Shown here piece by piece: positions 3,381 through 62,696 of a stretch of DNA of 64,000 nt. The position numbers and the translations under genes were made by a program. Origin of the DNA: an uncultured delta proteobacterium (lineage in GTDB: Bacteria > Myxococcota_A > Polyangia > Fen-1088); assembly GCA_963737265.1 (NCBI GenBank), contig CAVTRY010000011.1, forward strand, positions 640,001 to 704,000, given 5' to 3'. The first letter of the stretch is position 1. Every line of letters starts with the position of its first letter. The notes under the pieces are model-generated. The model saw only the letters and a program-made list of their open reading frames with translations. It was not told where the DNA came from and searched no databases.

Positions 3381-3421
3381 CGATTAGCAGAGGGGCGATC
3401 CGGGGTCAAGCAAGGAACCTG

Positions 3422-4435: not shown

Positions 4436-4448
4436 GATCCTCGCGGGG

Positions 4449-6985: not shown

Positions 6986-7110
6986 GCGCGACCATAGTAC
7001 CTGCTCGACTATCGGCCGTCGACCGCCAACCGTCGGGTCGTCGGGTCAAGGGTAGAAGATGCGCGAAAATGAATGGCTGCGGCACGAGGTCGCCGAGGGC
7101 TCGCGCCGGG

Positions 7111-41256: not shown

Positions 41257-41484
41257 ATGGCAACTCTCACGATTAGAAATGTCCCAGACAAGGTCACAAA
41301 GTCGCTGAAGACTCTAGCCCGAAAGAACCATCGCTCGATGGAGCAAGAGGTGCGCGAGCTCATCAACGAGCACGTCGGTGAGCGCCTCTCTGTCCTCGAC
41401 CAAATCGAAGCCGCATGGGTCAAGCAGACACGTCGCCCGACCGCGGCTGAAGTCCAGGGATGGATCGCCACGGGACGCGAATGA
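41257..41484 (+). CDS. FitA/Arc-like ribbon-helix-helix antitoxin
   Basis: MATLTIRNVPD...LARKNHRSMEQEVRELI. Confidence 0.88.
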   Translation: MATLTIRNVPDKVTKSLKTLARKNHRSMEQEVRELINEHVGERLSVLDQIEAAWVKQTRRPTAAEVQGWIATGRE

Positions 41485-41897
41485 AAGCGGTCGTCGACAC
41501 GAACGTCCTCGCGTATTTTCTTTTGGGCACGCGACCTTTCGTCGAGGAAGCGAGCCGCTTTTGGCACGCGATCGATGGTGCCTTGGCGCCGGCAGTGTGG
41601 GAAGCTGAACTAGCGAATGTCATTTGGATGGCCGTGCGGGCCGACGCCATCGAGGCCGAGGACGCCAGGAGACGCCTCAGCCTCGCGGCGAAGATGGGCA
41701 TTCAATCCGTCCCGAGCAAGACTATGTGGCACGGCGCTCTTGAACGGGCGATTCAGTCGGGGGTGGCGGTGTACGACACCCTGTTCGTTGAACTCGCCAA
41801 ACGCGAGAACCTTCCGCTTGCAACCTTCGATGCGAAGGTGCTCGCGGCGTTCCCTGACATTGCTGTCCGCCCGAAAATCCTCGTCCCACAACACTGA
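41481..41897 (+). CDS. vapC: VapC/PIN-domain toxin
   Basis: VVDTNVL, ELANV, VYDTLFVELA, LATFD; ATGA overlap with the antitoxin. Confidence 0.9.
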   Translation: MKAVVDTNVLAYFLLGTRPFVEEASRFWHAIDGALAPAVWEAELANVIWMAVRADAIEAEDARRRLSLAAKMGIQSVPSKTMWHGALERAIQSGVAVYDTLFVELAKRENLPLATFDAKVLAAFPDIAVRPKILVPQH

Positions 41898-41918: not shown

Positions 41919-42051
41919 CCGGGATCCCCTCCGAGGGTACTTTCCGGGATCCCCTCCGGGATCCCCTCCGAGGGTACTTTCCGGGATCCCCTCTCCGGGA
42001 TCCCCTCCGAGGGTACTTTCCAGTGCCGGGATCCCCTCCGAGGGTACTTTC
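41919..42051 (+). repeat. REP-like short repeat array (CCGGGATCCCCTCCGAGGGTACTTT), left part
   Basis: 4 full units plus partial units. Confidence 0.9.
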
Positions 42052-42163
42052 TGCTGAGCGACAATTACATCTCCCCAAAGACGACAGCTACGTCGCCCCG
42101 CTTTGAGGCGCGACGGTGACCGTGAGGTAGACCTCCAAGCCCGCAAGCGGGCAGGAGGCACCT

Positions 42164-43663
42164 TTGAAGCCGGTCACCGACGCCCAAGTGAGGCGTTTGA
42201 TGGAAGAGATGAGCAAGATTGGAAAAGTAGGCCAGGCCGCCATGAAGGCGGGCATGGACCGGAAGACAGGGCGGCGATACATCGCCGCGGGCAAGCTACC
42301 GTCGGAGCTACGGCAGCCGCGGTGGTGGCGGACGCGCCCTGACGCGTTCGCCGAGGACTGGCCAGCCGTGGCCAAGTTGCTGGAGGAAACGCCTGGGCTG
42401 GAGGCTCAGACGGTGCTGGAGCTGCTGGAGGCGAAGCAGCCAGGGCGGTACAACGAGAGCCATCTTCGGACAATGCAGCGGCGAATCCGTCGCTGGCGGG
42501 CCGAGCATGGTCCTGCGCGTGAGATTTGGTTCACGCAGGCGCATCGGCCCGGTGAAGCCGCGCAAACCGACTTCACGTCGACGGCGGAGCTTGGTGTGAC
42601 GATCGTGGGCCAGCTATTTGTGCACCTTTTGTGCGTGACGGTGCTGCCGTACTCGAACTGGCAATGGGCGACCGCGTGTCTGTCGGAGTCTCTGGCAGCG
42701 CTTCGGCGAGGGATCCAGTCGGCGCTGTTCCAGCTTGGGCGGGTGCCGCGATACCACCAAACCGACCACTCGACGGCGGCGACACATCAGATCGCTCGCG
42801 ATGCGGAAGATCGCACTTTCAACGATGAATACAAGGCGGTCATGCGGCACCTCGGAATGGAGCCACGAACTACAGCCGTCGGGGCCAAGGAACAAAACGG
42901 CGATGTGGAGGCCAGCAACGGCGCGCTCAAGCGTCGGCTTGAACAAGCGCTGCTGGTGCGTGGCAGCCGCGACTTCGCGGACCAAGACGACTACGAACGC
43001 TTCGTAGCCAAGGTGGTCCGCAAAGCCAACGCTTCGCGAGGCCCGCGCGTCGCCGAGGAGATCGAAGCCATGCGGCCGCTGGTGGTGGAGCGTTTGCCGG
43101 AGTACGCAGAAATGACGGCACCTGTGGCGTCGACGAGCACCATCCGGGTCAAGTCGTGCGCCTACTCGGTGCCGTCGAGGCTGATCGGCGCACGGGTGAG
43201 AGTCCGCGTGTTCGAGCACCGAATCGAGGTGTACTACGCCGACAACTTGGAATTGGCCTGCGACAGGCTGCGAGGCAAGACCGCGCGCATCGACTACCGG
43301 CACGTCATCTGGTCTTTGGTGCGCAAGCCGGGCGCGTTTTCTCGCTACGTCTACCGAGAAGAGCTGTTTCCAAGCGTGACTTTCAGGCGGGCATACGACG
43401 CGATCCAGGCGACCAAGCCTGGAATCAAAGGCGACGTTGAATACCTGCGCATTCTTCACCTGGCCGCCAGCACGATGGAAGCCGATGTTGAGCAAGCGCT
43501 CACGACTCTGCTTGCCGATGGGACCATCTTGACGGCGGATGCAACCAAGAAGAGATGCACACAGGCGACGGACAGTACCTATCCACCGAGCGTCCCCGCG
43601 CTCGAAGCACCGCTGGTCGATCTCGCGTCCTACGACCTGCTCCTCGAACAGGTGGCATCATGA
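42164..43663 (+). CDS. istA: IS21 transposase IstA
   Basis: MDRKTGRRY, PGEAAQTDF, NGDVEASNG, YSVPSRLIG. Confidence 0.93.
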   Translation: MKPVTDAQVRRLMEEMSKIGKVGQAAMKAGMDRKTGRRYIAAGKLPSELRQPRWWRTRPDAFAEDWPAVAKLLEETPGLEAQTVLELLEAKQPGRYNESHLRTMQRRIRRWRAEHGPAREIWFTQAHRPGEAAQTDFTSTAELGVTIVGQLFVHLLCVTVLPYSNWQWATACLSESLAALRRGIQSALFQLGRVPRYHQTDHSTAATHQIARDAEDRTFNDEYKAVMRHLGMEPRTTAVGAKEQNGDVEASNGALKRRLEQALLVRGSRDFADQDDYERFVAKVVRKANASRGPRVAEEIEAMRPLVVERLPEYAEMTAPVASTSTIRVKSCAYSVPSRLIGARVRVRVFEHRIEVYYADNLELACDRLRGKTARIDYRHVIWSLVRKPGAFSRYVYREELFPSVTFRRAYDAIQATKPGIKGDVEYLRILHLAASTMEADVEQALTTLLADGTILTADATKKRCTQATDSTYPPSVPALEAPLVDLASYDLLLEQVAS

Positions 43664-44508
43664 CCAACGTCTCCGTAGACACGGTCAAGCCGAGCGCGCT
43701 CGACGCTCTGCTGGTGCTTCTGCGCGCGCTCAAGCTGCCTGCCTTCACCCGGCACGCCGAGGAGATCGCGATCAAGGCCAGCCGCGAGGGGTGGACCTTC
43801 AGCCAATACCTCCAGCACCTGGCCGAACTGGAAATCGAAGAGCGCCGAACCCGTCGCATCGATCGCGCGCTTCGCGATTCGGACCTTCCCACGGAGAAAA
43901 CCCTGGCCACCCTGGAACGTGGTCGGCTGTCACCCAAGGTGATGAAGCAGATGGCGAGCCTGTGTGAGGGTGGCTTTGTCGAACGTGGGGAGAACCTGCT
44001 CGTCTTCGGACTGCCCGGCCGAGGCAAAAGTCACGTTGTGGCTGCCATCGGCCACGAACTCATCCGGCGCGGCTACCGGGTCCTCTTCACGCCGACCTTC
44101 GCGCTTGTCCAGAGGCTGCTGGCCGCCAAGCGCGACCTTCGCCTGGAACGAGAACTGGCCGCGCTCGACATCTATCACGCCGTGATCCTCGACGACATCG
44201 GCTACGTCCAGCAGAGCCGCGATGAAATGGAGGTCCTTTTCACCTTCCTGGCCGAGCGGTACGAACGCAAGAGCGTCCTCATCACCAGCAACCTGGTCTT
44301 CAGCGATTGGATCCGCATTTTCAAGGATCCCATGACCACCGCCGCCGCCATCGACCGACTGGTCCACCACGCGGTCATCCTTGAGATGACCGGCCCCAGC
44401 TACCGCAGCGAAGAAGCACGAAAGAGAGGCGTCACCACCCCAGCGACAACTACGACAACTACCGATCAACCAACGACAACTACCCCCGACAACAATGGGG
44501 CGATGTAA
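43660..44508 (+). CDS. istB: IS21 helper ATPase IstB
   Basis: GLPGRGKSH, ILDDIGY, ITSNL, AAIDRLVHH. Confidence 0.95.
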   Translation: MTNVSVDTVKPSALDALLVLLRALKLPAFTRHAEEIAIKASREGWTFSQYLQHLAELEIEERRTRRIDRALRDSDLPTEKTLATLERGRLSPKVMKQMASLCEGGFVERGENLLVFGLPGRGKSHVVAAIGHELIRRGYRVLFTPTFALVQRLLAAKRDLRLERELAALDIYHAVILDDIGYVQQSRDEMEVLFTFLAERYERKSVLITSNLVFSDWIRIFKDPMTTAAAIDRLVHHAVILEMTGPSYRSEEARKRGVTTPATTTTTTDQPTTTTPDNNGAM

Positions 44509-44550
44509 TTGACGTCACCGGGTGAATGTAGTTGACGTCCAGCAACTTTC

Positions 44551-44800
44551 GGCGCCCGGGATCCCCTCCCAGTGTACCCGGGATCCCCTCCTCCGGGATC
44601 CCCTCCGAGGGTACTTTCCAGTGCCGGGATCCCCTCCGAGGGTACTTTCGGCGCCCGGGATCCCCTCCCAGTGTACCCGGGATCCCCTCCGAGGGTACTT
44701 GAGCCGTGGCAGCGCGGGCCCGGATCTCCCGGATCCCCTCCGAGGGTACTCCTCCCCGGGATCCCCTCCCCAGCCGGGAAAACCCGTCCGAGGGTACTTT
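44551..44800 (+). repeat. REP-like repeat array, continuation to the right of IS21
   Basis: 5 TCCGAGGGTACT cores plus partial GGGATCCCCTCC units. Confidence 0.9.
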
Positions 44801-44839
44801 TCCTCGCAACTTTCTGCTGCCGTTTCCGAGAACCCATGC

Positions 44840-45793
44840 ATGACCCTCCCTCGCCAGGTCGTGCCCGGCCGTGACTACATGATTACTCGTCGCTGTTCCG
44901 AGCGGCGCTTTTTCCTGCGCCCCGACGAAGACACAAACAACGCCTTCATCTATTATTGCCTGGCCCTGGCCGCCAGACGGGCCAAGGTGGAGGTCACGTT
45001 CTCGGTGGCTCTCTCGAACCACCACCACACCGGCATCCACGACCCCGACGGCAACTTCCCCATCTTCATCGAACACTTTCACGGCCTGCTCGCTCGCTGC
45101 CAAAACGCCTATCTCGGCCGCTTCGAAGGCTTCTGGTCATCCGAGCCAACCTCCGTGGTTCATCTGGTCGAGCCCAACGATATCCTCGACAAGATGACCT
45201 ATGCCTTCACCAATCCAACCGCCGCAAATCTGGTCGACACCGTCGAAGAATGGCCTGGCGTCGCCACGTTCCATGCGACCATTTCAGGCGGCCACCTCAC
45301 GGCGACGCGGCCGAAGCACTTCTTTCGCGACGATGGCGACTTGCCTGAAATCGCCAGCCTACCCATCGCGCGGCCGCAGGGCTATCAGCACCTCGATCAG
45401 CGCGAATGGGCCAGCCTCGTTACCGAACGCGTTCGCGCCGAGGAAGCAGACCAGCGCCAACGGCGGGTCGCCAAGGGCATCACCGTGCTCGGACGATACC
45501 GAATCTTGGAGCAGAATCCTTTTCAATGTCCACAGAGCCAGGCCCCGCGATTCCAGATGAGCCCGCGCGTGGCCGCGAAGAACAAGTGGGCGCGTATCGA
45601 GGCGCTCCTGCGCAACCGGGGCTTCATCGAGAAGTACCGGGATGCCTTCCTGGGTCACATGGCCGGGTTGGCGAACATCGTATTTCCCTTTGGCACCTAC
45701 TGGATGCGTAAGTTCGGCAAAGTCGCCTGCGAGGCCGCCGACGCCGTCGAGCAAGCGATCCTCTGCCCGCCCTTGGATCCCGCCGCCGCGTAG
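44840..45793 (+). CDS. RAYT-like HUH (Y1) transposase, copy 1 (full length, 317 aa)
   Basis: YMITRRC, LSNHHH (HUH-like), RFEGFW, catalytic-type YAFTNP, EEWPG. Confidence 0.8.
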   Translation: MTLPRQVVPGRDYMITRRCSERRFFLRPDEDTNNAFIYYCLALAARRAKVEVTFSVALSNHHHTGIHDPDGNFPIFIEHFHGLLARCQNAYLGRFEGFWSSEPTSVVHLVEPNDILDKMTYAFTNPTAANLVDTVEEWPGVATFHATISGGHLTATRPKHFFRDDGDLPEIASLPIARPQGYQHLDQREWASLVTERVRAEEADQRQRRVAKGITVLGRYRILEQNPFQCPQSQAPRFQMSPRVAAKNKWARIEALLRNRGFIEKYRDAFLGHMAGLANIVFPFGTYWMRKFGKVACEAADAVEQAILCPPLDPAAA

Positions 45794-45885
45794 CTGGTGC
45801 CTTCCCATCAAATGAAAATCGCGGTCCCCGCCCGCGCGCTTGCAACATCGCAAGGCCCCTCCCTCTCTCTTCAGATCCTGCCGTG

Positions 45886-46340
45886 AGCTCGCTGCTTGTC
45901 GATTCTGGAGGAATCGCCGCGCAGCACTGGAATGTTGCTCCGGGCCCGCTGCTCGTGCGACTGCCCGATCCGTTGTTCCTTTCCCGCGAACGACCCTCGG
46001 ACCGGAACCACGGGGAACCACGAACGACCCTCGGACCGGAACCACGCAGCTCGCTGCTTGTCGATTCTGGAGGGATCGCCGCGCAGCACTGGAATGTTGC
46101 TCCGGGCCCGCTGCTCGTGCGACTGCCCGATCCGTTGTTCCTTTCCCGCGAACGACCCTCGGACCGGAACCACGCGAACGCGAACGACCCGACCGGAACC
46201 ACGGGGAACCACGAACGACCCTCGGACCGGAACCACGCGGACCGGAACCACGGGGAACCACGAACGACCCTCGGACCGGAACCACGCGGACCGGAACCAC
46301 GCGAACGACCCTCGGACCGGAACCACGGAACCACGGACCG
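45886..46340 (-). repeat. Inverted-orientation repeat array (CGTGGTTCCGGTCCGAGGGTCGTTCG on minus strand) including a 127-bp duplication
   Basis: 6 full ACCCTCGGACCGGAACCACG units; 45886..46012 repeats at 46048..46174. Confidence 0.9.
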
Positions 46341-46433
46341 AGAATACTCTTCGACATCAACGAATGAATGATTGAGCGCTCACTGCGCACAGGACCTCCG
46401 CCCGGGCACGCGCAAGGCTGACGCCTTTCGCGC

Positions 46434-47566
46434 CTATTTCTGTCCGTTTCCGCCGAATTCGCGCGGCTCGACAACCAGAGGGGGAGTTCCTTTCCCGGAC
46501 GCGGTAACATGAATCACGTCGATATCCACCGCGTCGAGATCTGCAATGTGCGGTGGCCCGAGCCGGATGGTGTTCTTTCCCGCCGCAAGGGTCAGCGAAG
46601 TCGTGGCTGCGTGGATGACATCCCAAGAGCCGCCGAAACAAGGGAACTGCCAGAAGGGCGTGGTGTGGTTGGCACCATCGATCTGCGTCCCGTTCACCGC
46701 GATAAGGTGCGGCCGACACCCAGGCTGTGGATTCGCCTTGGGATTGAAGTAGGTCATCCAGGTCGGGGCCGGGACGCCGCCGCAATCGGCGTCAGTCCAG
46801 TTGTCGTTATTCCCGCAGTGGTACCACCAGGTGATGTCGTAGGCCCCAGCGGCGGGCACGGTGACGGCGGTGAAGGTCACGCCACTGCCGTTGGTTCCGC
46901 CACGGCCAAGAAGTTGCGTAAGCTTGCCACCCCCGCTGCAGCAAACCGCGCCTTCCGCCACTGTCTTGCAGGTCGGCCCGCACGGCGTCACCTCTACTGT
47001 CCCCCCCAATTTCGAAGTTTCCGGGATATTTTCCGGCGCCTCGGCCTCGTACCAGAGGTCGACGTCCCCCCCGCGATCGTGCCGCCCGCACCGCCGGTGC
47101 CGCTCGTGCCGCCCGCGGCACTCGTGCCACCCGCAGCACTCGTGCCGCCCGCGGCGCTCGTGCCGCCCTTCGACGTTGCGCCGCCAGTTCCGGGAATGGC
47201 GCCCGCAGCACCGCCAGCCGAAGTTGAACCTCCCAACCCTCCTGAACTCGCAACGCCACCAGTCGACGCCCCGCCCGCTGCACTCGCTCCGCCCGCGGTC
47301 GTTGCGCCCCCAGCGGCAGTCACGCCCCCGGCAGTTGATGCCCCACCGCCACCGCTACCTCCTGCGCTCGCGACTGTTCCGCCAGCGGAAGTCGCTCCGC
47401 CGGAGCCTGGAAGCGCGCCGCCAAAGCCACCGCTCTTTCCCCCTGATACGGTCGCGCCACCCGTACCAGTGGCGGTGCCGGTGTTCGACGTGCAGCTAGC
47501 CGCCAGCAAGGCGACCAACGCAGCGCCGGCCCAAAGACTGAAACGACAGCAGAATGAACGCGTCAT
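46434..47566 (-). CDS. Gly-linker lipoprotein with a CBM6/35-like domain; frameshift near 47050
   Basis: LLAASC lipobox, Gly/Thr linker, (W)YEAE in an alternate frame, VTVPAAGAYDITWWY, LAAGKNTIRL. Confidence 0.65.
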
Positions 47567-47676
47567 GGGAACCTCGTCGATGAAAAAGGGTGGAGTGGCG
47601 GACAAGAGGATCGAAAGCGTGTGGGAGTCAATGGATCTTGTCAGCGCGTGGGTCGACCGCGCGCAGTAGCGATCGG

Positions 47677-48828
47677 TCAGGAACCAGACACGACCGGCGT
47701 AACCAGCTTCGGCCAGAGGGGGTCTGGGGCGACTCCCTTCCCATTCGGCTGTACATCCAGCGCATCAATGTCCGCGGCGTCCAGCGTGGTCGCGCCGGGC
47801 GCGTGGATGAGAATGGTGTTCGCTCCGGCTTTCAACGGAAGGGACGTCGTCGCGCCGTGAAGAGTGGACCAAGGCGCTGTGTAACAAGGGAACTGGTAGT
47901 AGAGCGCCGTCTGGCCGCCTACGGTCGATGACATCGGAACGCCGTTCACATCGATGAGATGTGGCCGGCACCCTGTGCCCGCCCCGGTGTTGTAGTTGAG
48001 TCCACCGCACTTGGTGTCTCCAAAGACGTCAGCGTGCCCGGGTGTGTCCGGCCCGCAATGGTACCACCACGTGACGTCGTAGTTGCCTGCAGCTGGGACG
48101 GTGACCGCATTGAATTGGACTCCCCCACCCTTGTTTTGGCAATTTGTGTAGCTTGACGTTGAAGTGGGCGGATCGCACGGGCTTCGTCCGAGAATTTGAT
48201 TAACAACCTTCCCACCTGAGGCGCAATTGGCACCCTCCTTCACCCCGTCCACTGCGCAGGGGGCGCCCTCTCCAGCGGTCACGCCTTCGACTGGATAGGT
48301 CAGCGTGTTCAGTGGGGACTCGGCCTCGTATCTCATGAAGAAGTTGGCCGGCACATCCGAGCCACCGCCCACACCGCTCGATCCTCCTGCGGAGGATCCT
48401 CCTGCACCACCTGCGTTGACGCCGCCGGTCCCAGCTAAACTGCCGCCGGCTTGCCCCGCATCTGGAACCGTGTTTCCGCCGGTGAAACTGTTGCCGCCAG
48501 TGCCAGTCGTCACGCCACCGGTACCTGGCTGGCCCCCGGTCTGCGCCGCTCCGCCGTTCTGGCTCCCTCCGCCGCCGGTGCCACTCGACACCACAGTTGA
48601 CGCTCCACCGCCACTGCTACCTCCCGTGCTCGCGACTGTTCCGCCAACGGAAGGCGCTCCACCGAAGCCTGGAAGCGCGCCGCCAACGCTGTCGCTCGCT
48701 CCCCCTGATGCGGTCGCGCCACCGGTAGCAGTGGTACTGCTGGTCTTCGACGTGCAGCTAGCCGCGAGCAAGGCGACCAATGCACCGCCGGCCCAAAGAC
48801 TGGAACGACAGCAGAATAGACACGTCAT
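47677..48828 (-). CDS. Gly-linker lipoprotein with a CBM6/35-like domain (paralog of the adjacent gene)
   Basis: Same signal peptide, RYEAE, VTVPAAGNYDVTWWYHCG, LKAGANTI. Confidence 0.7.
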   Translation of the reverse strand: MTCLFCCRSSLWAGGALVALLAASCTSKTSSTTATGGATASGGASDSVGGALPGFGGAPSVGGTVASTGGSSGGGASTVVSSGTGGGGSQNGGAAQTGGQPGTGGVTTGTGGNSFTGGNTVPDAGQAGGSLAGTGGVNAGGAGGSSAGGSSGVGGGSDVPANFFMRYEAESPLNTLTYPVEGVTAGEGAPCAVDGVKEGANCASGGKVVNQILGRSPCDPPTSTSSYTNCQNKGGGVQFNAVTVPAAGNYDVTWWYHCGPDTPGHADVFGDTKCGGLNYNTGAGTGCRPHLIDVNGVPMSSTVGGQTALYYQFPCYTAPWSTLHGATTSLPLKAGANTILIHAPGATTLDAADIDALDVQPNGKGVAPDPLWPKLVTPVVSGS

Positions 48829-49042
48829 GAGGACCTCATCAATGAAACGGTGGATTGGGAAAATGGAGGATCGAAAGGATCGGAGTCAATGGCTCATGCG
48901 GGCGGTGTCCTGCCAGCGGTGCCCACACCGGTTGTGGGACGTAGACAGACCTCCCAAAGCTTCTATCGGCTCAGGCGCAGGTTGCCGTTCTTTGGTGTTT
49001 TTCTGTTGCGCTATGAATGGTCCCGTGCTACGCGTCTGGTCT

Positions 49043-49855
49043 ATGGCTTTTCCCGTACGCTCATCCCTAGTTCTTGGCTTGGTGACGCTCGCATTCGCGG
49101 GTTCCGCCTCCGCCGCCGATAGGGCGAAGTCGAGGGGAGCGCGGGAGAAAGCCGCCAAGAAGGCGTGTTCTGTGGGGGACTTCCAAAAGGGCGTGGATAT
49201 CCTGGGAGATCTCTTCGTCGAAACCAACGATTTCAACTACGTCTACAACCAGGGCAGATGTCTCCAGCAAAACAGCCGCTGGGAGCAAGCCGTCAATCGA
49301 TTTCGCGAATTCCTGCGTAAAGCAAAGGATCTTTCTGAGAGTGACAGAGTCGAGGTCGATCGTCAAGTCAGCGAATGCGAAAATTCGCTCGCCAAGGCGG
49401 CCCAGGTGGCGCCACCACCGGTCACCGCGGCGCCGCCGACGGTCGCGCGCGTCGAAACGCCGGACCCTGCGCCTGAACCGACGACACCCGAGGTCGCGAC
49501 CAAGCCGACTCCACCGCCGTCGGACGGCAGTCAAGGCAAGGGCCTTCGTACCGCCGGAATCATCTGCGCGGTCGTCGGACTTGCCGCGGTCGGCACCGGC
49601 GTCGGCTTGGCCTTGAAAACCCAAAGTATCACTTCCGATGAGAAGACGGCGGGAGGAGCCACCAAGTCCCAGGAGGATGAGCGCAAGTCCCTGATAACCT
49701 TGGGCTGGGTCAGCTACGGCGTCGGCGCGGCAGCTATCGCAACCGGCGCGATTCTCTATATCGTGGGTTGGCCGAGCGCCCAGTCGACCAGCGTTGCGCT
49801 GTCGCCTGTCCTCGGCCCCGACGGGGCTTCCGTGATGCTGAAAGGGAAATTCTAA
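49043..49855 (+). CDS. Secreted TPR-like membrane protein
   Basis: Signal peptide, YVYNQGRC...AVNRFREFL, Pro linker, C-terminal TM helices. Confidence 0.65.
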   Translation: MAFPVRSSLVLGLVTLAFAGSASAADRAKSRGAREKAAKKACSVGDFQKGVDILGDLFVETNDFNYVYNQGRCLQQNSRWEQAVNRFREFLRKAKDLSESDRVEVDRQVSECENSLAKAAQVAPPPVTAAPPTVARVETPDPAPEPTTPEVATKPTPPPSDGSQGKGLRTAGIICAVVGLAAVGTGVGLALKTQSITSDEKTAGGATKSQEDERKSLITLGWVSYGVGAAAIATGAILYIVGWPSAQSTSVALSPVLGPDGASVMLKGKF

Positions 49856-52290
49856 TGCGAACTTATCGCGCGGTGCTCTCCAGGGTTGTTTTTTCCATGT
49901 CGGTCGTCGGCTTCGCTGGCCTGCAAGGCTGTTTTGGCCAAGGCACCGGCCTCAAAGCCAGCGACGGCGCGGTTGCCGGGAGACAAATCGAGGGTGGCGG
50001 AGCGGGCGGAAGCGTAGGGAAGGATGGCTCGTCGGGAGACGGCCCAATTTCGTCGGGTGGCAAGATCGCGACCGATGGACCGGCGCCGACAGGCGGCAGC
50101 GCCGGCGGTGCGGGTGGTGGCGGTGGTGGCGGCGCCGGCGGCACCTCAGTCGGAGATGCACCTCTCGCGGGCTCGGGTGGTGCGGGAAGTGGAGGCGCCA
50201 CCGGCGGCGCGGGCGGAACTACCGTTGGGGCTAGCGGCGCGGGCGGAATCGTCGTCGCCGCTGGCGGCGCCGGAGGTACTTCCGTGGTGGATGCTCCGCT
50301 CGCAGCCTCGGGTGGTGCGGGAAGCGGGGGGGCCACTGGCGGCACGGGCGGCAATGGCACGGGCGGCAGCGGCACGGGCGGCAGCGGCGGCGGCGCGGGG
50401 GGCACGACGACCTTTTCCACCGGTGCCACTTGCCTGACCGATGCCCAGTGCACGCTCGGATTCTGCGTCGACGGCGTTTGCTGCAACAGCAGGTGCGCCG
50501 GACAATGCCAGGCCTGCGCCGAGACTGGTAGTGTTGGGACATGCGCGACGGTCACTTCTGGAAGCCCCCGGGGCTCTCGCACGGCCTGCAGCGGCACTGA
50601 CAAGTGCAAGGGCACCTGTGATGGTTCCAGCGCCGCGTCATGCAAGATGCCCAACAATGAGACCATCTGCAAGAACGAAATCTGCTCGGCCGATCAACAT
50701 ACGCCCCCCTCGTATTGTAATGGCAGCGGTACTTGTCCCACCCAAAATGCGTCGCCATGCGGGAGTGGCGCGTGCGCAACCGACGGAAGTGGCACATGCC
50801 TCGGCTCCTGCACGGCAACCTCCTGCCCCACCGGCCAATACTGTACCTCTACCGGCAGTTGTGCGCCGAAGAAGGGTGCCGGAGCCGGAAACACGTGCGC
50901 GACAGGGACCGAGTGTGGTTCTGGCTTCTGCGCACCAGATGGTGTTTGCTGCCAGTCGGCGTGCACCGGTCAATGCCAGACCTGCAACAACAGCACCGGG
51001 CTCTGTAGCCGAGTCGCCTCGGGCCAGCCCGTGGGAGGCCGGGGCGCGTGCAGCAACGCCGGCACGACTTGCGGGGGAACCTGCGATGGGAGCTCAGATA
51101 CCTGCCACTATCCAGGTACAGAAATAACCTGTGGAAGCCCGGCGTGCTCTTCAGACAACACTTCGACAGTTACGCCGGCCTGCGGTGGATCCGGCACATG
51201 TACCTCTTCCACGGTCGGCCCTTGCGGATCTAGCGCCTACTGCAGCGGCGGTAGCTGTGTGCCGAAAGGTAGCGGCAACTGCTCCAGCAACATCCAATGC
51301 ACGAGCGGCAATTGCTCCGCGGGCCTTTGCTGCGCAAGTGGACTTACCAATTCCAACGGAGTCTGTTGCACTTCCGGCCAGACCGGTTGCAGTGGTACCT
51401 GCTGTATGGCTCCGAACACGTGCGGCGGTGGCGGAACCGCCGGTGTGTGCGGGTGCATGCCCGATTGCGGCACTCGCGTCTGTGGTTCCGTACCCAACGG
51501 GTGTGGCTCGACTTGCGGCTCCTGCAACAATCCCCCAACGTGCTTCACCGGAACGGGCACGTGCAACACGAGCGGTCAATGCACATACACGCCGGTGACC
51601 TGCACTGCGACGCCCTGCCACAATGCCGGGTCATGTTCGGGGGGAAGCTGTCAACCAGGCAGCGCAAAGAACGCGATGCAGGACTTGAGCTGCCAATCGA
51701 CGCCGGGGAATTGGTGTTCTAATGGAACCTGCGTGCAGTGCTTGCAGAATTCGAACTGCCCGTCCACTTCCCCGACATGCACCAACCACACTTGTGGTTG
51801 TCCCGTTAAGACCGCGAGCAATGTCATAAACAATCCTGGGTTCGACGATGCGTTCTCTTGGAGCTACACGGGTAGCGCATATTGGGACAGCAACGTTGAC
51901 GCTGATGGCTGCTCCGGCTCAGGATCGGCCGGGCTGCCTGCTGCGTTGTCGGCGGGTGATGCCCCTTACCCTTATGCCGAGCAATGCATTTTTCCGGTGG
52001 AATCGAACGTGCTCTACCAGTTCGGCTACTCTCTTTACGTCAATGACCCTGCCATCCATGTTTCTTGCCTGATAGATTACTATACGGGCGCTTACTGTGC
52101 GCTCGGCACTGAAGACGGCTACTCGTACGCCGACCAGCCTTTCATGCCAGCGGTTGGATGGACACCTCACGTGTTCTGGGCGCAGTCGGGGCCTAGTTCC
52201 CGAAGCGCCAGTGTTTATTGCACTTGCACTAGCGGGTGTGGGGGTGCTCACGTGGACAAACTCTTTCTCAATCCGAATGGAACATTCTGA
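49855..52290 (+). CDS. Large Gly- and Cys-rich surface lipoprotein
   Basis: LQGC lipobox, Gly linker, repeated CVDGVCC-type motifs, C-terminal NNPGFD domain. Confidence 0.75.
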   Translation: MRTYRAVLSRVVFSMSVVGFAGLQGCFGQGTGLKASDGAVAGRQIEGGGAGGSVGKDGSSGDGPISSGGKIATDGPAPTGGSAGGAGGGGGGGAGGTSVGDAPLAGSGGAGSGGATGGAGGTTVGASGAGGIVVAAGGAGGTSVVDAPLAASGGAGSGGATGGTGGNGTGGSGTGGSGGGAGGTTTFSTGATCLTDAQCTLGFCVDGVCCNSRCAGQCQACAETGSVGTCATVTSGSPRGSRTACSGTDKCKGTCDGSSAASCKMPNNETICKNEICSADQHTPPSYCNGSGTCPTQNASPCGSGACATDGSGTCLGSCTATSCPTGQYCTSTGSCAPKKGAGAGNTCATGTECGSGFCAPDGVCCQSACTGQCQTCNNSTGLCSRVASGQPVGGRGACSNAGTTCGGTCDGSSDTCHYPGTEITCGSPACSSDNTSTVTPACGGSGTCTSSTVGPCGSSAYCSGGSCVPKGSGNCSSNIQCTSGNCSAGLCCASGLTNSNGVCCTSGQTGCSGTCCMAPNTCGGGGTAGVCGCMPDCGTRVCGSVPNGCGSTCGSCNNPPTCFTGTGTCNTSGQCTYTPVTCTATPCHNAGSCSGGSCQPGSAKNAMQDLSCQSTPGNWCSNGTCVQCLQNSNCPSTSPTCTNHTCGCPVKTASNVINNPGFDDAFSWSYTGSAYWDSNVDADGCSGSGSAGLPAALSAGDAPYPYAEQCIFPVESNVLYQFGYSLYVNDPAIHVSCLIDYYTGAYCALGTEDGYSYADQPFMPAVGWTPHVFWAQSGPSSRSASVYCTCTSGCGGAHVDKLFLNPNGTF

Positions 52291-52336
52291 GGAGCTCTCA
52301 CCTTTCGGTGCCTCTCCAATATCCCCAATATCCTGT

Positions 52337-52405
52337 CCGAGGGTCATTCTTAAGCGCAACTTTCTGCTGCCGTTTCCGAGAATCCATGCATGCCAGGTCG
52401 TGCCC
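52337..52405 (+). mobile_element. RAYT-element left-end stub
   Basis: TCCGAGGGT, then leader GCAACTTTCTGCTGCCGTTTCCGAGAATCCATGCATG, then CCAGGTCGTGCCC. Confidence 0.75.
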
Positions 52406-52554
52406 CCGAGGCTACGCGAAATCGAGATTTCCGAGCGTATCCTGTTGTCGTCAATCGGGAGATTCTCGCGTACAGAGGACATCGAACCCAGGAAATCCCC
52501 CTCCGAGGGTACTTTTCCGCGCAACTTTCTGCTGCCGTTTCCGAGAATCCATAC

Positions 52555-53127
52555 ATGACCCTCCCCCGCCAGGTCGTGCCCGGCCGTGACTACATGATTA
52601 CCCGCCGCTGTTCCGAGCGGCGCTTCTTCCTCCGTCCTGACGAAGACACCAACAACGCCTTCATCTACTGCCTGGCCTTGGCCGCCAGGCGGGCCAAGGT
52701 GGAGGTCACGTTCTCGGTGGCTCTCTCGAATCACCACCACACCGGCATCCACGACCCCGACGGCAACTTCCCAGTCTTCATCGAATACTTTCACGGTCTG
52801 CTCGCTCGCTGCCAGAACGCCCATCTTGGCCGCTTCGAAGGCTTCTGGTCATCCGAGCCGACCTCCGTCGTTCATCTGGTCGAGGCCAACGACATCCTGG
52901 AGAAGATGACTTACGCCTTCACCAATCCGACCGCCGCAGATTTGGTCGACACCGTCGAGGAATGGCCTGGCGTCACCACGTTCCAGGCCAGCATTTCGGG
53001 CGGCCACCTCACCGCGACCCGGCCGAAGCACTTCTTTCGCGACGACGGCGACTTGCCTGAAATCGCTAGTCTACCCATCGCGCGGCCTCAGCAAATCCAA
53101 TCCCCCTCCGAGGGTACTTTCAGCTGA
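52555..53127 (+). pseudogene. RAYT-like transposase, C-terminally truncated at a repeat array
   Basis: Near-identical to copy 1 up to LPIARPQ, then runs into AAATCC...CCCCTCCGAGGGTACTTT. Confidence 0.85.
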
Positions 53128-53360
53128 AAATCCCCCTCCGAGGGTACTTTCAAATCCCCCTCCCCAAATCCCCCACAAATCCCCCTCCCGAAAATCCCCA
53201 AAATCCCAAAATCCCCGTCCGAGGGTACTCTTTTCCCCAAATCCCCCTCCAAATCCCCAAATCCCCCTCCGAGGGTACTTTCAAACCTTTAGAAAATCCC
53301 CCTCTAAATCCCCGTGCGAGTAGAAAATCCCCCTCTAGATCCCCGTACGAGGATACCTTT
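53092..53360 (+). repeat. C-rich repeat array of AAATCCCC units with TCCGAGGGTACT cores
   Basis: Directly visible; a similar block occurs at 53606..53725. Confidence 0.9.
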
Positions 53361-53398
53361 TCGCGCAACTTTCTCGTGTCGTTTCCGAGAACCCATTC

Positions 53399-53605
53399 AT
53401 GACCCTCCCTCGCCAGGTCGTGCCCGGCCGTGACTAAATGATGACTCGCCGCTGTTCCGAGCGGCGCTTCTTCCTGCGCCCCGATGAAGACACCAACAAC
53501 GCCTTCATCTACTGCCTGGCCTTGGCCGCCAGGCGGGCCAAGGTGGAGGTCACGTTCTCGGTGGCTCTCTCGAACCACCACCACACCGGCATCCACGACC
53601 CCGAC
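53399..53605 (+). pseudogene. RAYT-like transposase 5' fragment with a premature TAA
   Basis: GACTAA replaces GACTAC; truncated after GIHDPD by repeats. Confidence 0.85.
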
Positions 53606-53765
53606 AAATCCCCCTCCGAGGGTACTTTCAAATCAAATCCCCCTCCGAGGGTACTTTAGAAAATCCCCCTCTAAATCCCCGTGCGAGTAGAAAATCCCCC
53701 TCTAAATCCCCGTGCGAGGATACCTTTTCGCGCAACTTTCTCGTGTCGTTTCCGAGAACCCATTC

Positions 53766-54716
53766 ATGACCCTCCCTCGCCAGGTCGTGCCCGGCCGTGA
53801 CTACATGATGACTCGCCGCTGTTCCGAGCGGCGCTTCTTCCTGCGCCCCGATGAAGACACCAACAACGCCTTCATCTACTGCCTGGCCTTGGCCGCCAGG
53901 CGGGCCAAGGTGGAGGTCACGTTCTCGGTGGCTCTCTCGAACCACCACCACACCGGCATCCACGATCCCGATGGCAACTTCCCCATCTTCATTGAACACT
54001 TTCACGGCCTGCTCGCTCGCTGCCAAAACGCCTATCTCGGCCACTTCGAAGGCTTCTGGTCATCCGAGCCAACCTCCGTGGTTCATCTGGTCGAGGCAAA
54101 CGATATCCTCGAAAAGATGACCTATGCCTTCACCAATCCGACCGCCGCGGATCTGGTCGACACCGTCGAGGAATGGCCTGGCGTGACCACGTTCCAGGCC
54201 ACCATTTCGGGCGGCCACCTCACCGCGACGCGGCCGAAGCACTTCTTTCGTGACGACGGCGATTTGCCTGAAATGGCCAGCCTACCCATCGCGCGGCCGC
54301 AGGGCTATCAGGACCTCGAGCAGGGCGAATGGGCCAGTCTCGTTACCGAACGCGTTCGCGCCGAGGAAGCAGACCACCGCCAACGGCGGGTCGCCAAGGG
54401 CATCGCCGTGCTTGGACGAGACCGAATCCTGCGGCAGAATCCTTTTCACTGTCCGCAGAGCCAGGCCCCGCGATTCCAGATGAGCCCGCGCGTGGCCGCG
54501 AAGAACAAGTGGGCGCGTATCGAGGCGCTCCGGCGCAACCGAGGCTTCATCGAGAAGTACCGGGATGCGTTCCTGGGTCACGTGGCTGGTTTGGCGAACA
54601 TCGTGTTTCCCTTCGGCACCTACTGGATGCGCAAGTTCGGCAAGGTCGCCTGCGAGGCCGCCGAAGCTGTCGAGCAAGCGATCCTGAGCCCGCCTTTGGA
54701 TCCCGCCGCCGCGTAG
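53766..54716 (+). CDS. RAYT-like HUH (Y1) transposase, second full-length copy (316 aa)
   Basis: Same motifs as 44840..45793; highly similar but not identical. Confidence 0.8.
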   Translation: MTLPRQVVPGRDYMMTRRCSERRFFLRPDEDTNNAFIYCLALAARRAKVEVTFSVALSNHHHTGIHDPDGNFPIFIEHFHGLLARCQNAYLGHFEGFWSSEPTSVVHLVEANDILEKMTYAFTNPTAADLVDTVEEWPGVTTFQATISGGHLTATRPKHFFRDDGDLPEMASLPIARPQGYQDLEQGEWASLVTERVRAEEADHRQRRVAKGIAVLGRDRILRQNPFHCPQSQAPRFQMSPRVAAKNKWARIEALRRNRGFIEKYRDAFLGHVAGLANIVFPFGTYWMRKFGKVACEAAEAVEQAILSPPLDPAAA

Positions 54717-54862
54717 CTGGTGCCTTTCGATCATGGTGCCTTTCGATCGAGGTGAAAATTGTGGCTCCACTCTCCGGCGCGATGGGAGACGCCCGCCTGC
54801 GCTCGCGCTTGCGACGTCGCAAGGCCCCTCTCTGTCTTCGGATCTTGCCGTGGGATCGCGCA

Positions 54863-55112
54863 AATCCCGGTCCGAGGGTACTTTTTTCCAAAATCCCCCT
54901 CTGGAACATTCTGAGGTGCGTGGAATCCGGTCAGGAGTTCTCGGATCCCCTCCGAGGGTACTTTTCGGATCCTCAGATCCCCTCCGAGGGGAGTTGACCC
55001 GATTTGATGGAACGGTTTCGTTACACTGCTTTCTTCACAGAGTGTCAGCTCGAATTCGATCGGGCCGTGGTAATTGAGCGCCGCGGGCCGAAAACCCCGT
55101 CCGAGGGGACTT
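54863..55112 (+). repeat. Further TCCGAGGG motif cluster
   Basis: Cores near 54871, 54951, 54983 and 55100. Confidence 0.8.
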
Positions 55113-55151
55113 TTCCTCACAACTTTCTGCTGCGTTTCCGAGAACCCATGC

Positions 55152-55345
55152 ATGACCCTCCCTCGCCAGGTCGTGCAACTACATGATTTACCCGCCGCTG
55201 TTCCGAGCGGCGCGTCTTCTTGCGTCCTGATGACGACACCAACAACGCCTTCATCTACTGCCTGGCCTTTGAGAGGGCACGGTCGTCTGGATGCGCACGT
55301 TCGGCAGAGTCGCCTGCGAGACTGCCGAGGCCGTCGAGCAAGCCA
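55152..55345 (+). pseudogene. Internally deleted RAYT-like element (MITE-like)
   Basis: 5' part (MTLPRQVV...DTNNAFIYCLA) joined to the 3' part (WMRTFGRVACETAEAVEQA). Confidence 0.8.
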
Positions 55346-55425: not shown

Positions 55426-55613
55426 GTGACTTCGACCGAAGTCATTCGACTGCTCAAGCGAGACGGTTGGGGCGAGGTGCGAGTACGAGGCTCGCATCAT
55501 CATTTCGCGCATTCAACGAAGCCGGGAATCGTTACTGTCCCCCATCCCAAGAAAGATATTCCAAGAGGTACCCTTGCAGCATTCGACGTCAGGCTGGCAT
55601 CAAGCTGAGGTGA
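55426..55613 (+). CDS. hicA: HicA-family toxin; probable frameshift near the 3' end
   Basis: EVIRLLKRDGW...RGSHHHF...VTVPHPKKDIPRGTL; tail SIRRQAGIKLR is in another frame. Confidence 0.85.
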
Positions 55614-56119
55614 TGACGATGCACTACACGGCGATTATCACAAAAGAAGGCAGGCAGACGCTGGCCGAGTTCCCCGGGTGTCCGGGCTGCCAGACATTCG
55701 CCGACGCGGGCGACGACATTGGCAAGCGGGCATCCGAGGCATTGCTCGGATGGCTGGAAGCGCATCTCGTGTCGGGCCAGGCACCACCCGAGCCCAAATC
55801 GATCAGGTCAAATGGGCGGGCTCGGACGCTGCAGGTGCCCGTTCCGGCCAAGCTCGCCGTGAAGCTGGCGCTTCGCTGGGCACGCAAGCGTGCTGGCCTG
55901 ACACAGGCCGAACTGGCCCGTCGAGCAGGTCTAAGCCAGCCCGCCGTGGCCCGCCTGGAAGACCCCGACCACAACCCCACGCTCGATTTGCTCGAACGTG
56001 TGGCCAAGGCCTTGGGCACGCGCCTTGAGGTCGGCCTTCGGGCCGCGCAAATGAGGGAATCCTGCAGTTGTCAATCGGGAGATTATCGTGGACGGAGGAG
56101 ACGAGAAGAGTCTTGCTGA
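55613..56119 (+). CDS. hicB: HicB-family antitoxin with an XRE HTH
   Basis: AEFPGCPGCQTF...ASEALLGWL; ARKRAGLTQAELARRAGLSQPAVARLE...NPTL. Confidence 0.85.
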   Translation: MTMHYTAIITKEGRQTLAEFPGCPGCQTFADAGDDIGKRASEALLGWLEAHLVSGQAPPEPKSIRSNGRARTLQVPVPAKLAVKLALRWARKRAGLTQAELARRAGLSQPAVARLEDPDHNPTLDLLERVAKALGTRLEVGLRAAQMRESCSCQSGDYRGRRRREESC

Positions 56120-56317: not shown

Positions 56318-56536
56318 TCATCCGATGGCAACCACGGACTGGATCGCGTCAGCGGGCAAGCCTCGTTTGATGTCTTCTAAGCGGTCCTGAAAGATGAGTT
56401 GGATCGAATCGCGCAGGCTCGTCTTCGCGTCCTCGACGGTTTCGCCTTGGCCGTTGGCACCGGGGATTTCGGGGCAGGTGGACCAGTAGCCGCCCTCGGG
56501 GGCAGACTCGATGATGGCGGTGAACTCGCCTCGCAT
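56318..56536 (-). CDS. Short orphan HicB-family protein
   Basis: FTAIIE...GGYW...CPEIPGANGQGETVEDAK. Confidence 0.85.
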   Translation of the reverse strand: MRGEFTAIIESAPEGGYWSTCPEIPGANGQGETVEDAKTSLRDSIQLIFQDRLEDIKRGLPADAIQSVVAIG

Positions 56537-60932: not shown

Positions 60933-61373
60933 GTCAAATCCTGGTCAGGTTGAGATCCGCCAGGCCAGCGCTGTCAAGTATTACGGGCTCGTCCATCGCC
61001 TCACTAGACGCGAAGGAGCCGAATGTGATCAAGGGAACGCCGGCCAACAGCCTCGAACAAGAATGCACTCGCCACGACAATCCTCCCAGATGGGGGGACC
61101 AATCCAGTGAATGGCGGGACTAAACTAGCCATTGCACGGAGGAATGTGGGGAAACAGCCCATAGCTTCAATCCGCAATCCGGTCAATCGAGACATCTTGA
61201 AAGCACCCATACGGCGCACTGTGCCTCACTGTCGAGCCTGGCGACTGAACATTGCTCACAGGCTGCATCGGTTACGCCCCTACACGCCACCACGCCGATC
61301 CCTGACATGGCGGCGCGTAGCTGGGCTCAACTCGCGAGCGCGGTACTCCGATACTCATAGATCGTACTGACCC

Positions 61374-62696
61374 ATGTGCAAACGGAGACGACCAATGACG
61401 CCGGCATCAACCGCCCCGCGGGCCTTTTCGCCCATTTTCGCCGTGCTGGCGGGCTTGTTTTGTGTCCTGGGGGCGTGCAATTTTGGATCCCTCGACTACC
61501 TGAAGGATGGTCACCGGCAAGATGGTGCCACGACTCCGAGCCCACCAAGCCAAGACACCGCGGTTTTCGATGCCATCCAATCGGACAGCTTGGCGAGCAG
61601 CGGGGTCGATGGCGCCGACAGCGGTGGTGGGGACTCGCCGGTGAAAACGCCGGATGCCGCGCCTCAAGAGGACGGAAGCGCGGGCGGAGTTCGGGACGTG
61701 GGCGCGAGCGTCGACGGCAAGGTGAACGATAGCGGCGCTTTCGACACTAGCGGAGACCAGCGTTTTACCGACGCTGCTGGTGGTACAACGGGATCCGGTG
61801 GCGGGGTTGGTATGGGCGGCACGGTCGGAACCGGCGGCAGCGCGGGCGTGGGCGGAAGCCTCGGTACGGGTGGGATCGTCGGCACCAGCGGCTCTATCGG
61901 CACCGGTGGCGGCGTGGGCTCGGGCGGAAGCCTCGGCACGGGTGGGATTGTCGGCACCAGCGGCTCTATCGGCACCGGCGGCGGCGTGGGCTCGGGCGGA
62001 AGCCCCGGCGCGGGTGGGACCGTCGGCACCGGCGGCGCGGTCGGCACCGGCGGCAGCATAGGCTCGGGCGGAAGCCTGGGCACAGGCGGGCTCACCGGCA
62101 CTGGCGGTGCCGGTGGAACGAGCGCGGCAGGCTGCGATACCACTGCTTCGACATTCTCGCAAACGACGACCTTCGCCGACCTGCCCGCGGTCACAGCCTA
62201 CTTTGGCACCGACCCGGGAGTTGGGTTTTCGACGACGGGACCAGCAGCAAACCCCACGCTCTGCGCAGCCGGCTGCGCAACCTATACCCTGGCATTCGTC
62301 GCGGGCACAGGCGCCTGGACAGCAGGCTCCGGCGTGGTTCACTGGTTTTCTCCGCTGACCAATCTGGTTGGTTCGACTCTCACCTATTCCATGGCCGTCG
62401 ACAATCCAGGCGTGCCCCTTCAGGTCCAGTCCTTCGCAATTGGCGATGCGAGCACGAGCTCGGCCTGGAGCCAACCGGCGCAGCTACTGGGTACGGATTT
62501 GGTGCCCTACGGCGGCGCGAATGGGCTTAAGGACTTCAGTCTGGAAATTGCCGATCACGCTATTCCCGGCCAGGGCACCTTCTGCGCGTCGGCCGCCGCG
62601 GGTATTGGCATGTATTTGCAGAGCGCGGACGCCATCACCACCTCGAACGCAGGAACCGTGACGGTGTACATCGGCAAAGTCTCGATTGGGCCGTAG
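61374..62696 (+). CDS. Gly/Thr-repeat lipoprotein of unknown function
   Basis: LGAC lipobox, GTGG repeats, beta-rich C-terminal domain. Confidence 0.65.
   Translation: MCKRRRPMTPASTAPRAFSPIFAVLAGLFCVLGACNFGSLDYLKDGHRQDGATTPSPPSQDTAVFDAIQSDSLASSGVDGADSGGGDSPVKTPDAAPQEDGSAGGVRDVGASVDGKVNDSGAFDTSGDQRFTDAAGGTTGSGGGVGMGGTVGTGGSAGVGGSLGTGGIVGTSGSIGTGGGVGSGGSLGTGGIVGTSGSIGTGGGVGSGGSPGAGGTVGTGGAVGTGGSIGSGGSLGTGGLTGTGGAGGTSAAGCDTTASTFSQTTTFADLPAVTAYFGTDPGVGFSTTGPAANPTLCAAGCATYTLAFVAGTGAWTAGSGVVHWFSPLTNLVGSTLTYSMAVDNPGVPLQVQSFAIGDASTSSAWSQPAQLLGTDLVPYGGANGLKDFSLEIADHAIPGQGTFCASAAAGIGMYLQSADAITTSNAGTVTVYIGKVSIGP

Follow-up and report, generated by a model that had tools for sequence, protein, structure and literature searches.

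A multi-copy relative of REP-associated transposases, stacked on one strand among oriented repeat arrays in a Myxococcota genome

The window analysed here is a stretch of 64,000 nucleotides (nt) from an uncultured delta proteobacterium of the Myxococcota (GenBank assembly GCA_963737265.1, contig CAVTRY010000011.1, positions 640,001 to 704,000). Between positions 41919 and 55343 it carries six whole or broken copies of a gene whose product is akin to the tyrosine transposases associated with repetitive extragenic palindromes (REPs), the REP-associated tyrosine transposases or RAYTs, and these copies stand on one strand among arrays of short repeats. The gene family, a little-studied group of transposases acting on single-strand DNA, is genuinely multi-copy and related to the known REP-associated transposases, but has not been demonstrated to be a gene-capture system.

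Six gene copies with a common left end

The island is laid out as follows.

41919..42051, + strand: distal part of the repeat array upstream of copy A, with 4 full cores
42052..44544, + strand: insertion sequence (IS) of the IS21 family, inserted into the upstream array of copy A, with istA at 42164-43663 and istB at 43555-44508
44545..44773, + strand: proximal part of the upstream array of copy A, with 4 full cores
44774..45892, + strand: unit A, with left-end repeat (core at 44788), conserved leader, intact open reading frame (ORF) at 44840-45793 and a 3' tail common with D
45886..46340, - strand: inverted repeat array 3' of copy A, with six cores at 45993-46308
46434..52290, both strands: four putative bystander genes between the inverted array of A and the stub
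52332..52415, + strand: stub (76% identical to A), retaining a diverged left-end repeat, the leader and ~30-75 nt of ORF sequence
52488..53091, + strand: copy B, spanning the first 600 nt of the unit: the left-end repeat, the leader and 537 nt from the start of the ORF
53092..53341, + strand: array of repeats separating B from C; 4 cores are full, and prefix-only partial units are numerous
53342..53604, + strand: copy C, in which the left end is followed by 206 nt from the start of the ORF, with the reading frame interrupted by a stop at 53435
53605..53708, + strand: array of repeats separating C from D, including 2 full cores
53709..54859, + strand: unit D, with left-end repeat (degenerate core), leader, intact ORF at 53766-54716 and 3' tail
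54861..54990, + strand: two repeat units 3' of D, with cores at 54872 and 54952
55092..55343, + strand: copy E, in which the left end is followed by ~120 nt of ORF sequence and by 57 nt from the ORF's 3' end, adjoining hicA

A leader-plus-start block of 44 nt (repeat family D7) occurs six times, at 44821, 52371, 52536, 53380, 53747 and 55133, always on the + strand and with 64% identity for the version in the stub (52371), and the start codons, read directly, lie at 44840, 52386/52390 (stub), 52555, 53399, 53766 and 55152. When the six regions are aligned, the core TCCGAGGGTAC sits 52-54 nt 5' of every ATG, and the common sequence starts at the left-end repeat, 5' of which the copies diverge. 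The first-pass annotation of this DNA had described six 5' ends on one strand with a common left end, start codons about 50 nt past a motif core, and a set made up of two full copies (A and D), two truncated copies (B and C), one stub and one internally deleted copy (E); on each of these points it was right.

Copies A and D are intact and encode 317 and 316 amino acids (aa). Their DNA is 93% identical (44783-45810 versus 53709-54733), and a further 84%-identical stretch of 3' tail reaches up to 45892 and 54859. Copy E persists as 55092-55267 and 55287-55343, has lost ~734 nt internally and carries an 8-nt deletion that leaves it frameshifted. Overall, the window copies are 85-96% identical to each other (differing by 4-15%) and thus not near-identical, and each has its own junction and flank. 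The differences between A and D are mostly synonymous, with a ratio of nonsynonymous to synonymous divergence (dN/dS) of 0.17 at a dS of 0.18, while B and D are separated by a dS of 0.29. A and D are under purifying selection, and the window copies are old. Within the unit, a GC-rich hairpin of 7 bp lies inside the ORF (44888-44907, with equivalents in B, C, D and E) over the codons for an invariant TRRCSERRF, and TCCGAG occurs three times, at about -53, -17 and +55 relative to the ATG.

Within the window, the repeats were seen only in the vicinity of these genes. With up to one mismatch, the 11-mer core is found 20 times in the window when 0.82 occurrences are expected, and none of 100 shuffled sequences reached 20; 19 of the 20 matches lie within 41930-55110, every one of them on the + strand. 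Outside the island the 8-mer occurs once (+ strand, 31144). The array unit of copy A reads GGGATCCCCT + CCGAGGGTAC + TTTCC and is interspersed with prefix-only partial units, which in the array at 53092-53341 take the form CAAATCCCC; in the arrays as a whole, prefix-only occurrences number 114 versus 102 full units. Copy A is preceded by nine cores on the + strand and followed by six on the - strand (45993-46308), an inverted set that had been overlooked earlier and part of which falls in a tandem duplication of 162 nt. No inverted array follows copy D, which has only two + units. The arrays' C-rich strand coincides with stretches of negative GC skew, which is strongly negative at 53001-54000 (-0.33) and about -0.15 at 44-46 kb and 52-53 kb.

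The same layout was observed in relatives. One scan of species-representative genomes returned 170 stretches with a relative of the protein, the best 80 of which were kept and gave 79 loci in 38 assemblies, designated here by L numbers. In the closest 16 (L001-L016, 153 kb), the cores CCGAGGGT within 1.5 kb of the gene obey a strict strand rule: all 48 upstream cores lie on the gene strand, and of those downstream 39 lie on the opposite strand and a single one on the gene strand, with cores absent from two of the 16 loci. Related cores, such as ACCGAGAGTA and CCCGACCGAG, stand in the same layout in more distant clades. Comparison of 78 distinct locus-prefix pairs (160 cores) extends the core to a conserved 17-nt site, CC-N2-T-CCGAGGGT-ACTT, where positions -5 and -4 are C in 66 and 75 of the pairs and position -1 is T in 53, and the 5-6 nt upstream of the site differ between arrays. 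In their arrays, which lie on the gene strand ahead of the gene and are inverted beyond it, the relatives and copy A resemble a REPtron or TIRtron. A hairpin model for the repeats was rejected, since the folds were no better than those of shuffled sequences and the consensus fold was negligible. As a separate observation, 4 of the 16 aligned left ends (L002, L005, L007 and L013) carry a tandem duplication of ~18 nt located ~70-20 nt upstream of the ATG, which starts inside the core and has GCGCAA directly followed by GGGTAC at its joint; such joints may hint at the position of a strand cut.

A multi-copy family of Y1 HUH proteins

The protein of copy A has HHH at residues 61-63 and Tyr121 within YAFTNP. 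In an alignment of 102 family members with the consensus SNHxH ... YxLxNP, H60, D67, Y120 and N124 are invariant and H62 and P125 are conserved in at least 90%; the middle (u) position of the HuH motif is unconserved across the family and is His in the window copies. The NCBIfam model REP_Tyr_transpos (NF047646) matches residues 5-139 at E ~1e-7. When a profile of the family is compared with solved structures, the best match is 4ER8, the TnpA_REP of E. coli (E 7.7e-4), followed by the ISDra2 TnpA; a single window protein as query found no meaningful solved relative. Alignment to E. coli RayT with hhalign gives a probability of 87.6% (E 3.5e-6, 129 columns) and pairs the HUH motif with the HMH of 4ER8/RayT and the Tyr with the YIYINP of RayT. 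The Pfam profile Y1_Tnp (PF01797) matches none of the three window proteins (A, B and D) at E<=0.01; 26 of 44 sampled relatives match it at E<=1, 4 of the 44 reaching the cut-off of 23 bits. The conserved C-terminal half (~170 aa) has no match in Pfam or among the sequences of the PDB. In the source annotations, members are named 'REP-associated tyrosine transposase', 'transposase' or 'hypothetical protein'. Taken together with the invariant H-x-H and Y-x3-NP motifs, these matches indicate that the protein of 316-317 aa is a single-tyrosine (Y1) HUH enzyme of the RAYT/TnpA_REP type, as the first reading of the DNA had proposed.

The family is large and, among the loci retained, was seen only in records of Myxococcota type. 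A word-indexed search retrieved 1643 proteins at E<=1e-3, the best 120 of which are 71-94% identical and mostly 316 aa long, and an exhaustive profile search found 4143 representatives of 50%-identity clusters at E<=1e-3, 787 of them at E<=1e-30, mostly of ~300 aa and matched over their full length. The titles of the 79 loci name Myxococcales, Polyangia, Polyangiaceae, Kofleriaceae, Anaeromyxobacter, Myxococcota or an unspecific (delta)proteobacterium, and in one case Pseudomonadota. An atlas queried with a homologue returned only clusters labelled 'transposase family', which are commonest in Myxococcota. No member turned up when plasmid (72,556) and phage (50,697) records were searched in protein mode.

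Several genomes hold more than one copy. Of the 79 loci kept, two to seven come from the same assembly in 18 of the 38 assemblies, and the left boundary is fixed within genomes, at about -50 to -60 nt in the clade of the window and at -117 to -135 nt in Anaeromyxobacter-type clades. L051 and L053, on different contigs, share 99.7% identity over a stretch that begins at the motif and ends one base beyond the stop codon; L003 and L004 are 97% identical from about -50 to +181, and L005 and L006 97% identical from -54 to about +150, in both cases with sharp ends. Beyond the ORF, the sole block conserved across the clade is the context of the stop codon, TAGC(T/C)GG. A tree of 63 proteins (with 19 of the 79 loci excluded because of in-frame stops or short matches) places the seven copies of Anaeromyxobacter oryzisoli in one clade with 88% support, groups A and D with P0001, a cluster-mate on another contig and putatively of the same genome, with 99%, and clusters several other pairs and triples by genome. 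It requires 40 label changes versus 53.4 for shuffled labels, and none of 200 shuffles was as low. L005 and L007 are orthologous, since they have the same upstream lipoprotein gene in two assemblies, and L006 is a younger paralogue of L005. These patterns indicate that the gene exists in several copies as a unit, which reaches from the site to the stop codon and continues into a tail particular to the lineage, and that this unit has been amplified separately in different genomes.

How the family relates to described systems was judged from the passages available of the papers cited here. These accounts treat RAYTs as single-copy, immobile and domesticated, moving only palindromic REPs. A gene bracketed by inverted cognate repeats is termed a REPtron, which is described as not transposing as a unit, the mobility of tnpA_REP being without evidence (PMC3333891, PMC8266576). 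Like E. coli RayT and its REPtron, the family has a Y1 HUH core with Y-x3-NP, a gene bracketed by cognate repeats of opposite orientation, local amplification of repeats and adjoining toxin-antitoxin modules. However, its protein is about twice as long owing to the extra conserved C-terminal half, its repeats are not palindromes with a 5' GT[AG]G foot but have a site that carries GTAC, and its gene is multi-copy with sharp unit ends, whereas unit transposition is denied for REPtrons. A further difference is that, within the 64-kb window, the repeats stand only next to the genes; inverted cognate repeats flank A but not D. TIRtrons (TIRYT), in which a RAYT-like gene is flanked by inverted repeats other than REPs (PMC3733652), likewise combine a Y1 gene with inverted non-REP repeats in clustered, small repeat families, but their common motif GGGGWSAS differs from the site of this family, and neither tandem arrays with a constant core nor stacked gene fragments are described in the available text of PMC3733652, which also gives no Myxococcota example. 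In the classification of Quentin et al. (2018, PMC6006769), Y-x3-NP is the signature of class 2 (TnpA_REP-like) and Y-x3-Q that of subclass 1.1. The family fits TnpA_Y1 class 2, with no tabulated subclass matching cleanly: subclass 2.3 is similarly long and multi-copy (median 325 aa, mean 3.9 copies, moderate identity between copies) but has a 55-aa insert and no repeats, unlike the present family with its arrays and a spacing of ~58 aa from HUH to Y, and subclass 2.4 is similar in having repeats that disrupt or enter the gene. The text supplements of PMC6006769 and PMC5581495, taken without PDFs and figures that possibly contain taxonomy tables, include no myxobacterial names, and full-text literature yielded nothing relevant on a RAYT/Y1 family in Myxococcota.

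With IS200/IS605 elements such as IS608 and ISDra2, the family has in common a Y1 HUH transposase, a single-gene unit of ~1-1.2 kb with defined ends, multiple copies and strand specificity, but it differs in having Y-x3-NP rather than Y-x3-Q, no tnpB and arrays of end sites at its flanks; it may also differ in its subterminal hairpins, none of which is clear in folds of the left ends. Its fixed start and variable 3' ends also recall the one-ended, origin-primed copying of IS91/ISCR elements. Those elements encode two-tyrosine HUH enzymes of another family, and no window protein matches the corresponding Pfam family at E<=0.01.

Origin of the stack

The joints within the island are informative on how the copies came to lie together. 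According to a tandem-repeat finder, a unit of 367 nt is present in 1.9 copies at 53287-53971, with 98% identity (also family D1). The duplicated segment, common to C and D, thus includes array sequence upstream of the 'fixed' left end, and C, having been copied with this upstream array, is not an independent insertion. In both B (53091/53092) and C, the 3' break in the gene is joined to the first base or bases of a CAAATCC-type repeat unit. Likewise, in a fragment at L060, whose clade has only ~41% protein identity, a point internal to the gene meets a repeat-unit start, with microhomology visible at the joint. Extra fragments lie beside the full copy in 6 of the 79 other loci (L010, L017, L021, L050, L060 and L073), nine fragments in all, each on the same strand as the full copy and none opposite; L077 is a single copy split by ~1.3 kb. 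Self-comparison of L010, L021, L050, L060 and L073 reveals tandem segmental duplications of 5' or 3' parts. A proposal that B and C broke at pseudo-copies of the core inside the gene was dropped, as the resemblance in the intact sequence needs two gaps.

Because of the 367-nt repeat over C and D, the joints at repeat-unit starts and the duplications in other loci, local tandem duplications that are anchored at the arrays, and whose new joints formed at repeat-unit starts, offer the best explanation of the stack. We consider it probable, with confidence somewhat above even, that the gene belongs to a Myxococcota-specific RAYT-like Y1 HUH element of the REPtron/TIRtron kind, at which nicking or fork stalling would seed such duplications. 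The enzyme would bind its site on single-stranded DNA and nick every repeat unit at its 5' edge or close to it. These nicks, or the stalling of forks at the arrays, would seed local tandem duplications in which a variable 3' end, within a unit or within the gene, becomes linked to a repeat-unit start, and the outcome would be prefix-only partial units and truncated copies such as B and C, and hence a stack on one strand. It is plausible that nicking by the encoded enzyme is the trigger. Copy A would then be a complete element that was hit later by the IS21 element, and the stub, B, C, D and E an old and decaying stack around one working gene.

Several observations sit uneasily with this explanation. 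The 2.1-kb duplicated segment of L021 carries ~1 kb of flank, and fragments consisting of the 3' part only occur in L010, L017, L050, L073 and P0273; thus, not all events were anchored at the left-end site. A symmetric dynamic-programming parse of the arrays, which is noisy, yields 190 units truncated at the 3' end versus 115 truncated at the 5' end overall; the ratio is 35 to 9 in the + arrays of the window and reversed in L007, so that the asymmetry expected of a fixed start is not uniform. The repeats do not make convincing hairpins, as nine folds gave z values of -2.1 to +0.8 versus shuffled sequences, and the consensus fold of 16 left ends reaches only -1.17 kcal/mol with no supported consensus structure; the recognition model of IS200 and REP systems may therefore not transfer. 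With regard to the enzyme, the NF047646 scores of 29.3 and 31.3 bits are below the equivalog cut-off of 80 bits, and A, B and D have no Pfam match at E<=0.01 and stay below the 23-bit cut-off of Y1_Tnp. The age of the window copies (dS 0.18-0.29) means that the window shows no sign of present-day activity. Finally, gene conversion between old paralogues could explain the clustering of copies by genome in the tree.

It is conceivable that the island was built by an active element whose own motif serves as the target of repeated re-insertion, complete or abortive, and that the expanding island can capture or shuffle the genes between its copies. This is what the first-pass annotation had proposed, and such a scenario accounts for six copies on one strand, each starting at the motif, as well as for same-strand stacks in 6 of 79 other loci and none with opposite strands. 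IS200/IS605 elements insert in one orientation beside a short target sequence, which ends up directly adjoining the left end of the element. Moreover, the near-identical dispersed units show that the gene unit spreads, and A is no closer to D (94% aa identity) than to P0001 on another contig (also 94%). The part of the claim that the gene itself is mobile hence holds as far as a multi-copy unit with sharp ends is concerned, but re-insertion was not borne out: C was duplicated together with the array upstream of its left end, the stacks elsewhere are tandem segmental duplications that include 3' parts and flank, and no remainder of a split copy lies 3' of any inserted copy in the window. The synonymous divergence among the copies also speaks against recent build-up. 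Nor does capture fare better, as the four genes lie outside both units, have homologues in none of the 79 related loci and reside in an interval with no compositional break. We therefore regard re-insertion as an unlikely origin of the stack, and less likely than local tandem duplication.

Another possibility is that the host alone is responsible, the copies being old, vertically inherited paralogues of RAYT type that sit in slippage-prone, microsatellite-like arrays and were truncated by replication slippage or unequal recombination, with no role for the enzyme and no mobility. The orthologous L005 and L007, which keep the same neighbouring gene in two assemblies, fit this possibility, as do the long divergence of window copies that are still under purifying selection, the microhomology at the L060 joint, the likeness of many partial units to slippage products and the absence of matches among the plasmid and phage records. 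However, it does not readily explain dispersed pairs that are 97-99.7% identical, lie on different contigs and end sharply exactly at the motif, nor the recurrence of lineage-specific amplification, and the strict strand rule of the arrays (48/0 and 39/1) is hard to obtain by slippage alone. We doubt this account, though it keeps a real chance of being correct. By comparison, mis-assembly of duplicates of a single gene can be set aside as exceedingly improbable. The region is repetitive, and the 556-nt tandem repeat of L010, which is 100% identical, could be such an artefact, but the window copies differ from each other and have unique junctions and flanks, the differences between A and D are mostly synonymous, and the same layouts recur in independent assemblies.

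A bolder scenario, which we put forward tentatively and ourselves rate as rather doubtful, is that the family represents a living intermediate between IS200/IS605 elements and domesticated REPtrons. It would be an autonomous Y1 HUH element that nicks at the start of short, non-palindromic repeat units and can join the freed 5' end to a nearby 3' end, so that one chemistry would write prefix-only mini-units, truncated copies on the kilobase scale and whole copies in one orientation, the arrays acting as landing pads, also for unrelated DDE insertion sequences. The family appears to break several of the rules for RAYTs, since its unit multiplies, its arrays are short, oriented and non-palindromic, and its conserved C-terminal half is uncharacterised. 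If the enzyme cuts at the sites, the family would offer a tractable system for the origin of REPtrons from insertion sequences and for the path from HUH nicks to local repeat amplification. The island in the window itself is an old, partly decayed stack rather than an active machine for gene capture.

Intervening genes and surroundings

Four genes separate the inverted array of copy A from the stub.

46434-47605, - strand: frameshifted lipoprotein paralogue, in two ORFs (46434-47009 and 46994-47605)
47677-48828, - strand: lipoprotein, tandem paralogue of the gene at 46434-47605
49013-49855, + strand: protein with signal peptide/transmembrane segment
49855-52290, + strand: cysteine-rich secreted protein of ~811 aa, with an internal tandem repeat of 135 nt (50127-50396)

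In line with the earlier description as secreted-protein genes, all four encode N-termini that resemble signal peptides or those of lipoproteins; one of the genes is frameshifted. The two lipoprotein paralogues have Gly/Ala/Thr-rich linkers and a block of 254 nt that is 87% identical between the genes (family D6), and the cysteine-rich protein of ~811 aa matches nothing in Pfam, NCBIfam or PADLOC. The search for homologues of these genes in the 79 related loci was made at E<=1e-5, and composition was compared with the rest of the window. The other neighbouring genes of the window are likewise not found in the 79 loci, save for a weak hicB-like match in L007. The earlier suggestion that the element acquires or shuffles genes finds no support here, and the four genes appear to be bystanders, no link to the element having been found. 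In a related setting, a preprint reported TnpA_REP genes beside prochlorosin genes and proposed diversification driven by the transposase, but a post-submission note in the available text withdraws the causal claim.

The IS21 element in the upstream array of copy A has imperfect terminal inverted repeats that begin with TGCTG and is flanked by a 6-bp direct repeat, ACTTTC; an uninterrupted version of its target, a unit plus spacer, lies at 44638. In L005 the array contains an ISAzo13-type element (6402-7625, - strand; Pfam DDE_Tnp_ISAZ013, E 4e-140), and in L016 an rve-type element (3120-4625, + strand). Because of these three independent cases, the arrays may be hot spots for the insertion of DDE insertion sequences.

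Toxin-antitoxin modules bracket the island, with a FitA-like ribbon-helix-helix protein and a PIN protein on the left (41257-41897) and HicA/HicB on the right (55426-56119). In E. coli, rayT sits between dinJ-yafQ and yafNO, and the REPtron is replaced by hicAB in some strains according to the available text of PMC3333891. A sequence of 47 nt that follows the stub (52433-52479) recurs with 81% identity at 56053-56099, at the 3' end of the hicB ORF (family D15), and may be the trace of an older junction between a copy of the element and a hicAB-like module. Past hicB, a second small ORF on the - strand (56318-56536, 72 aa) is HicB-like with a Pfam E of 2e-4, below the cut-off. No match was returned by Rfam at gathering thresholds over 41-57 kb, by a tRNA scan of the window, or by PHROGs and PADLOC. 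Further downstream, at 60382-62101, there are long, imperfect, GC-rich tandem repeats with periods of 24, 48 and 72 nt, which are probably coding repeats of low complexity.

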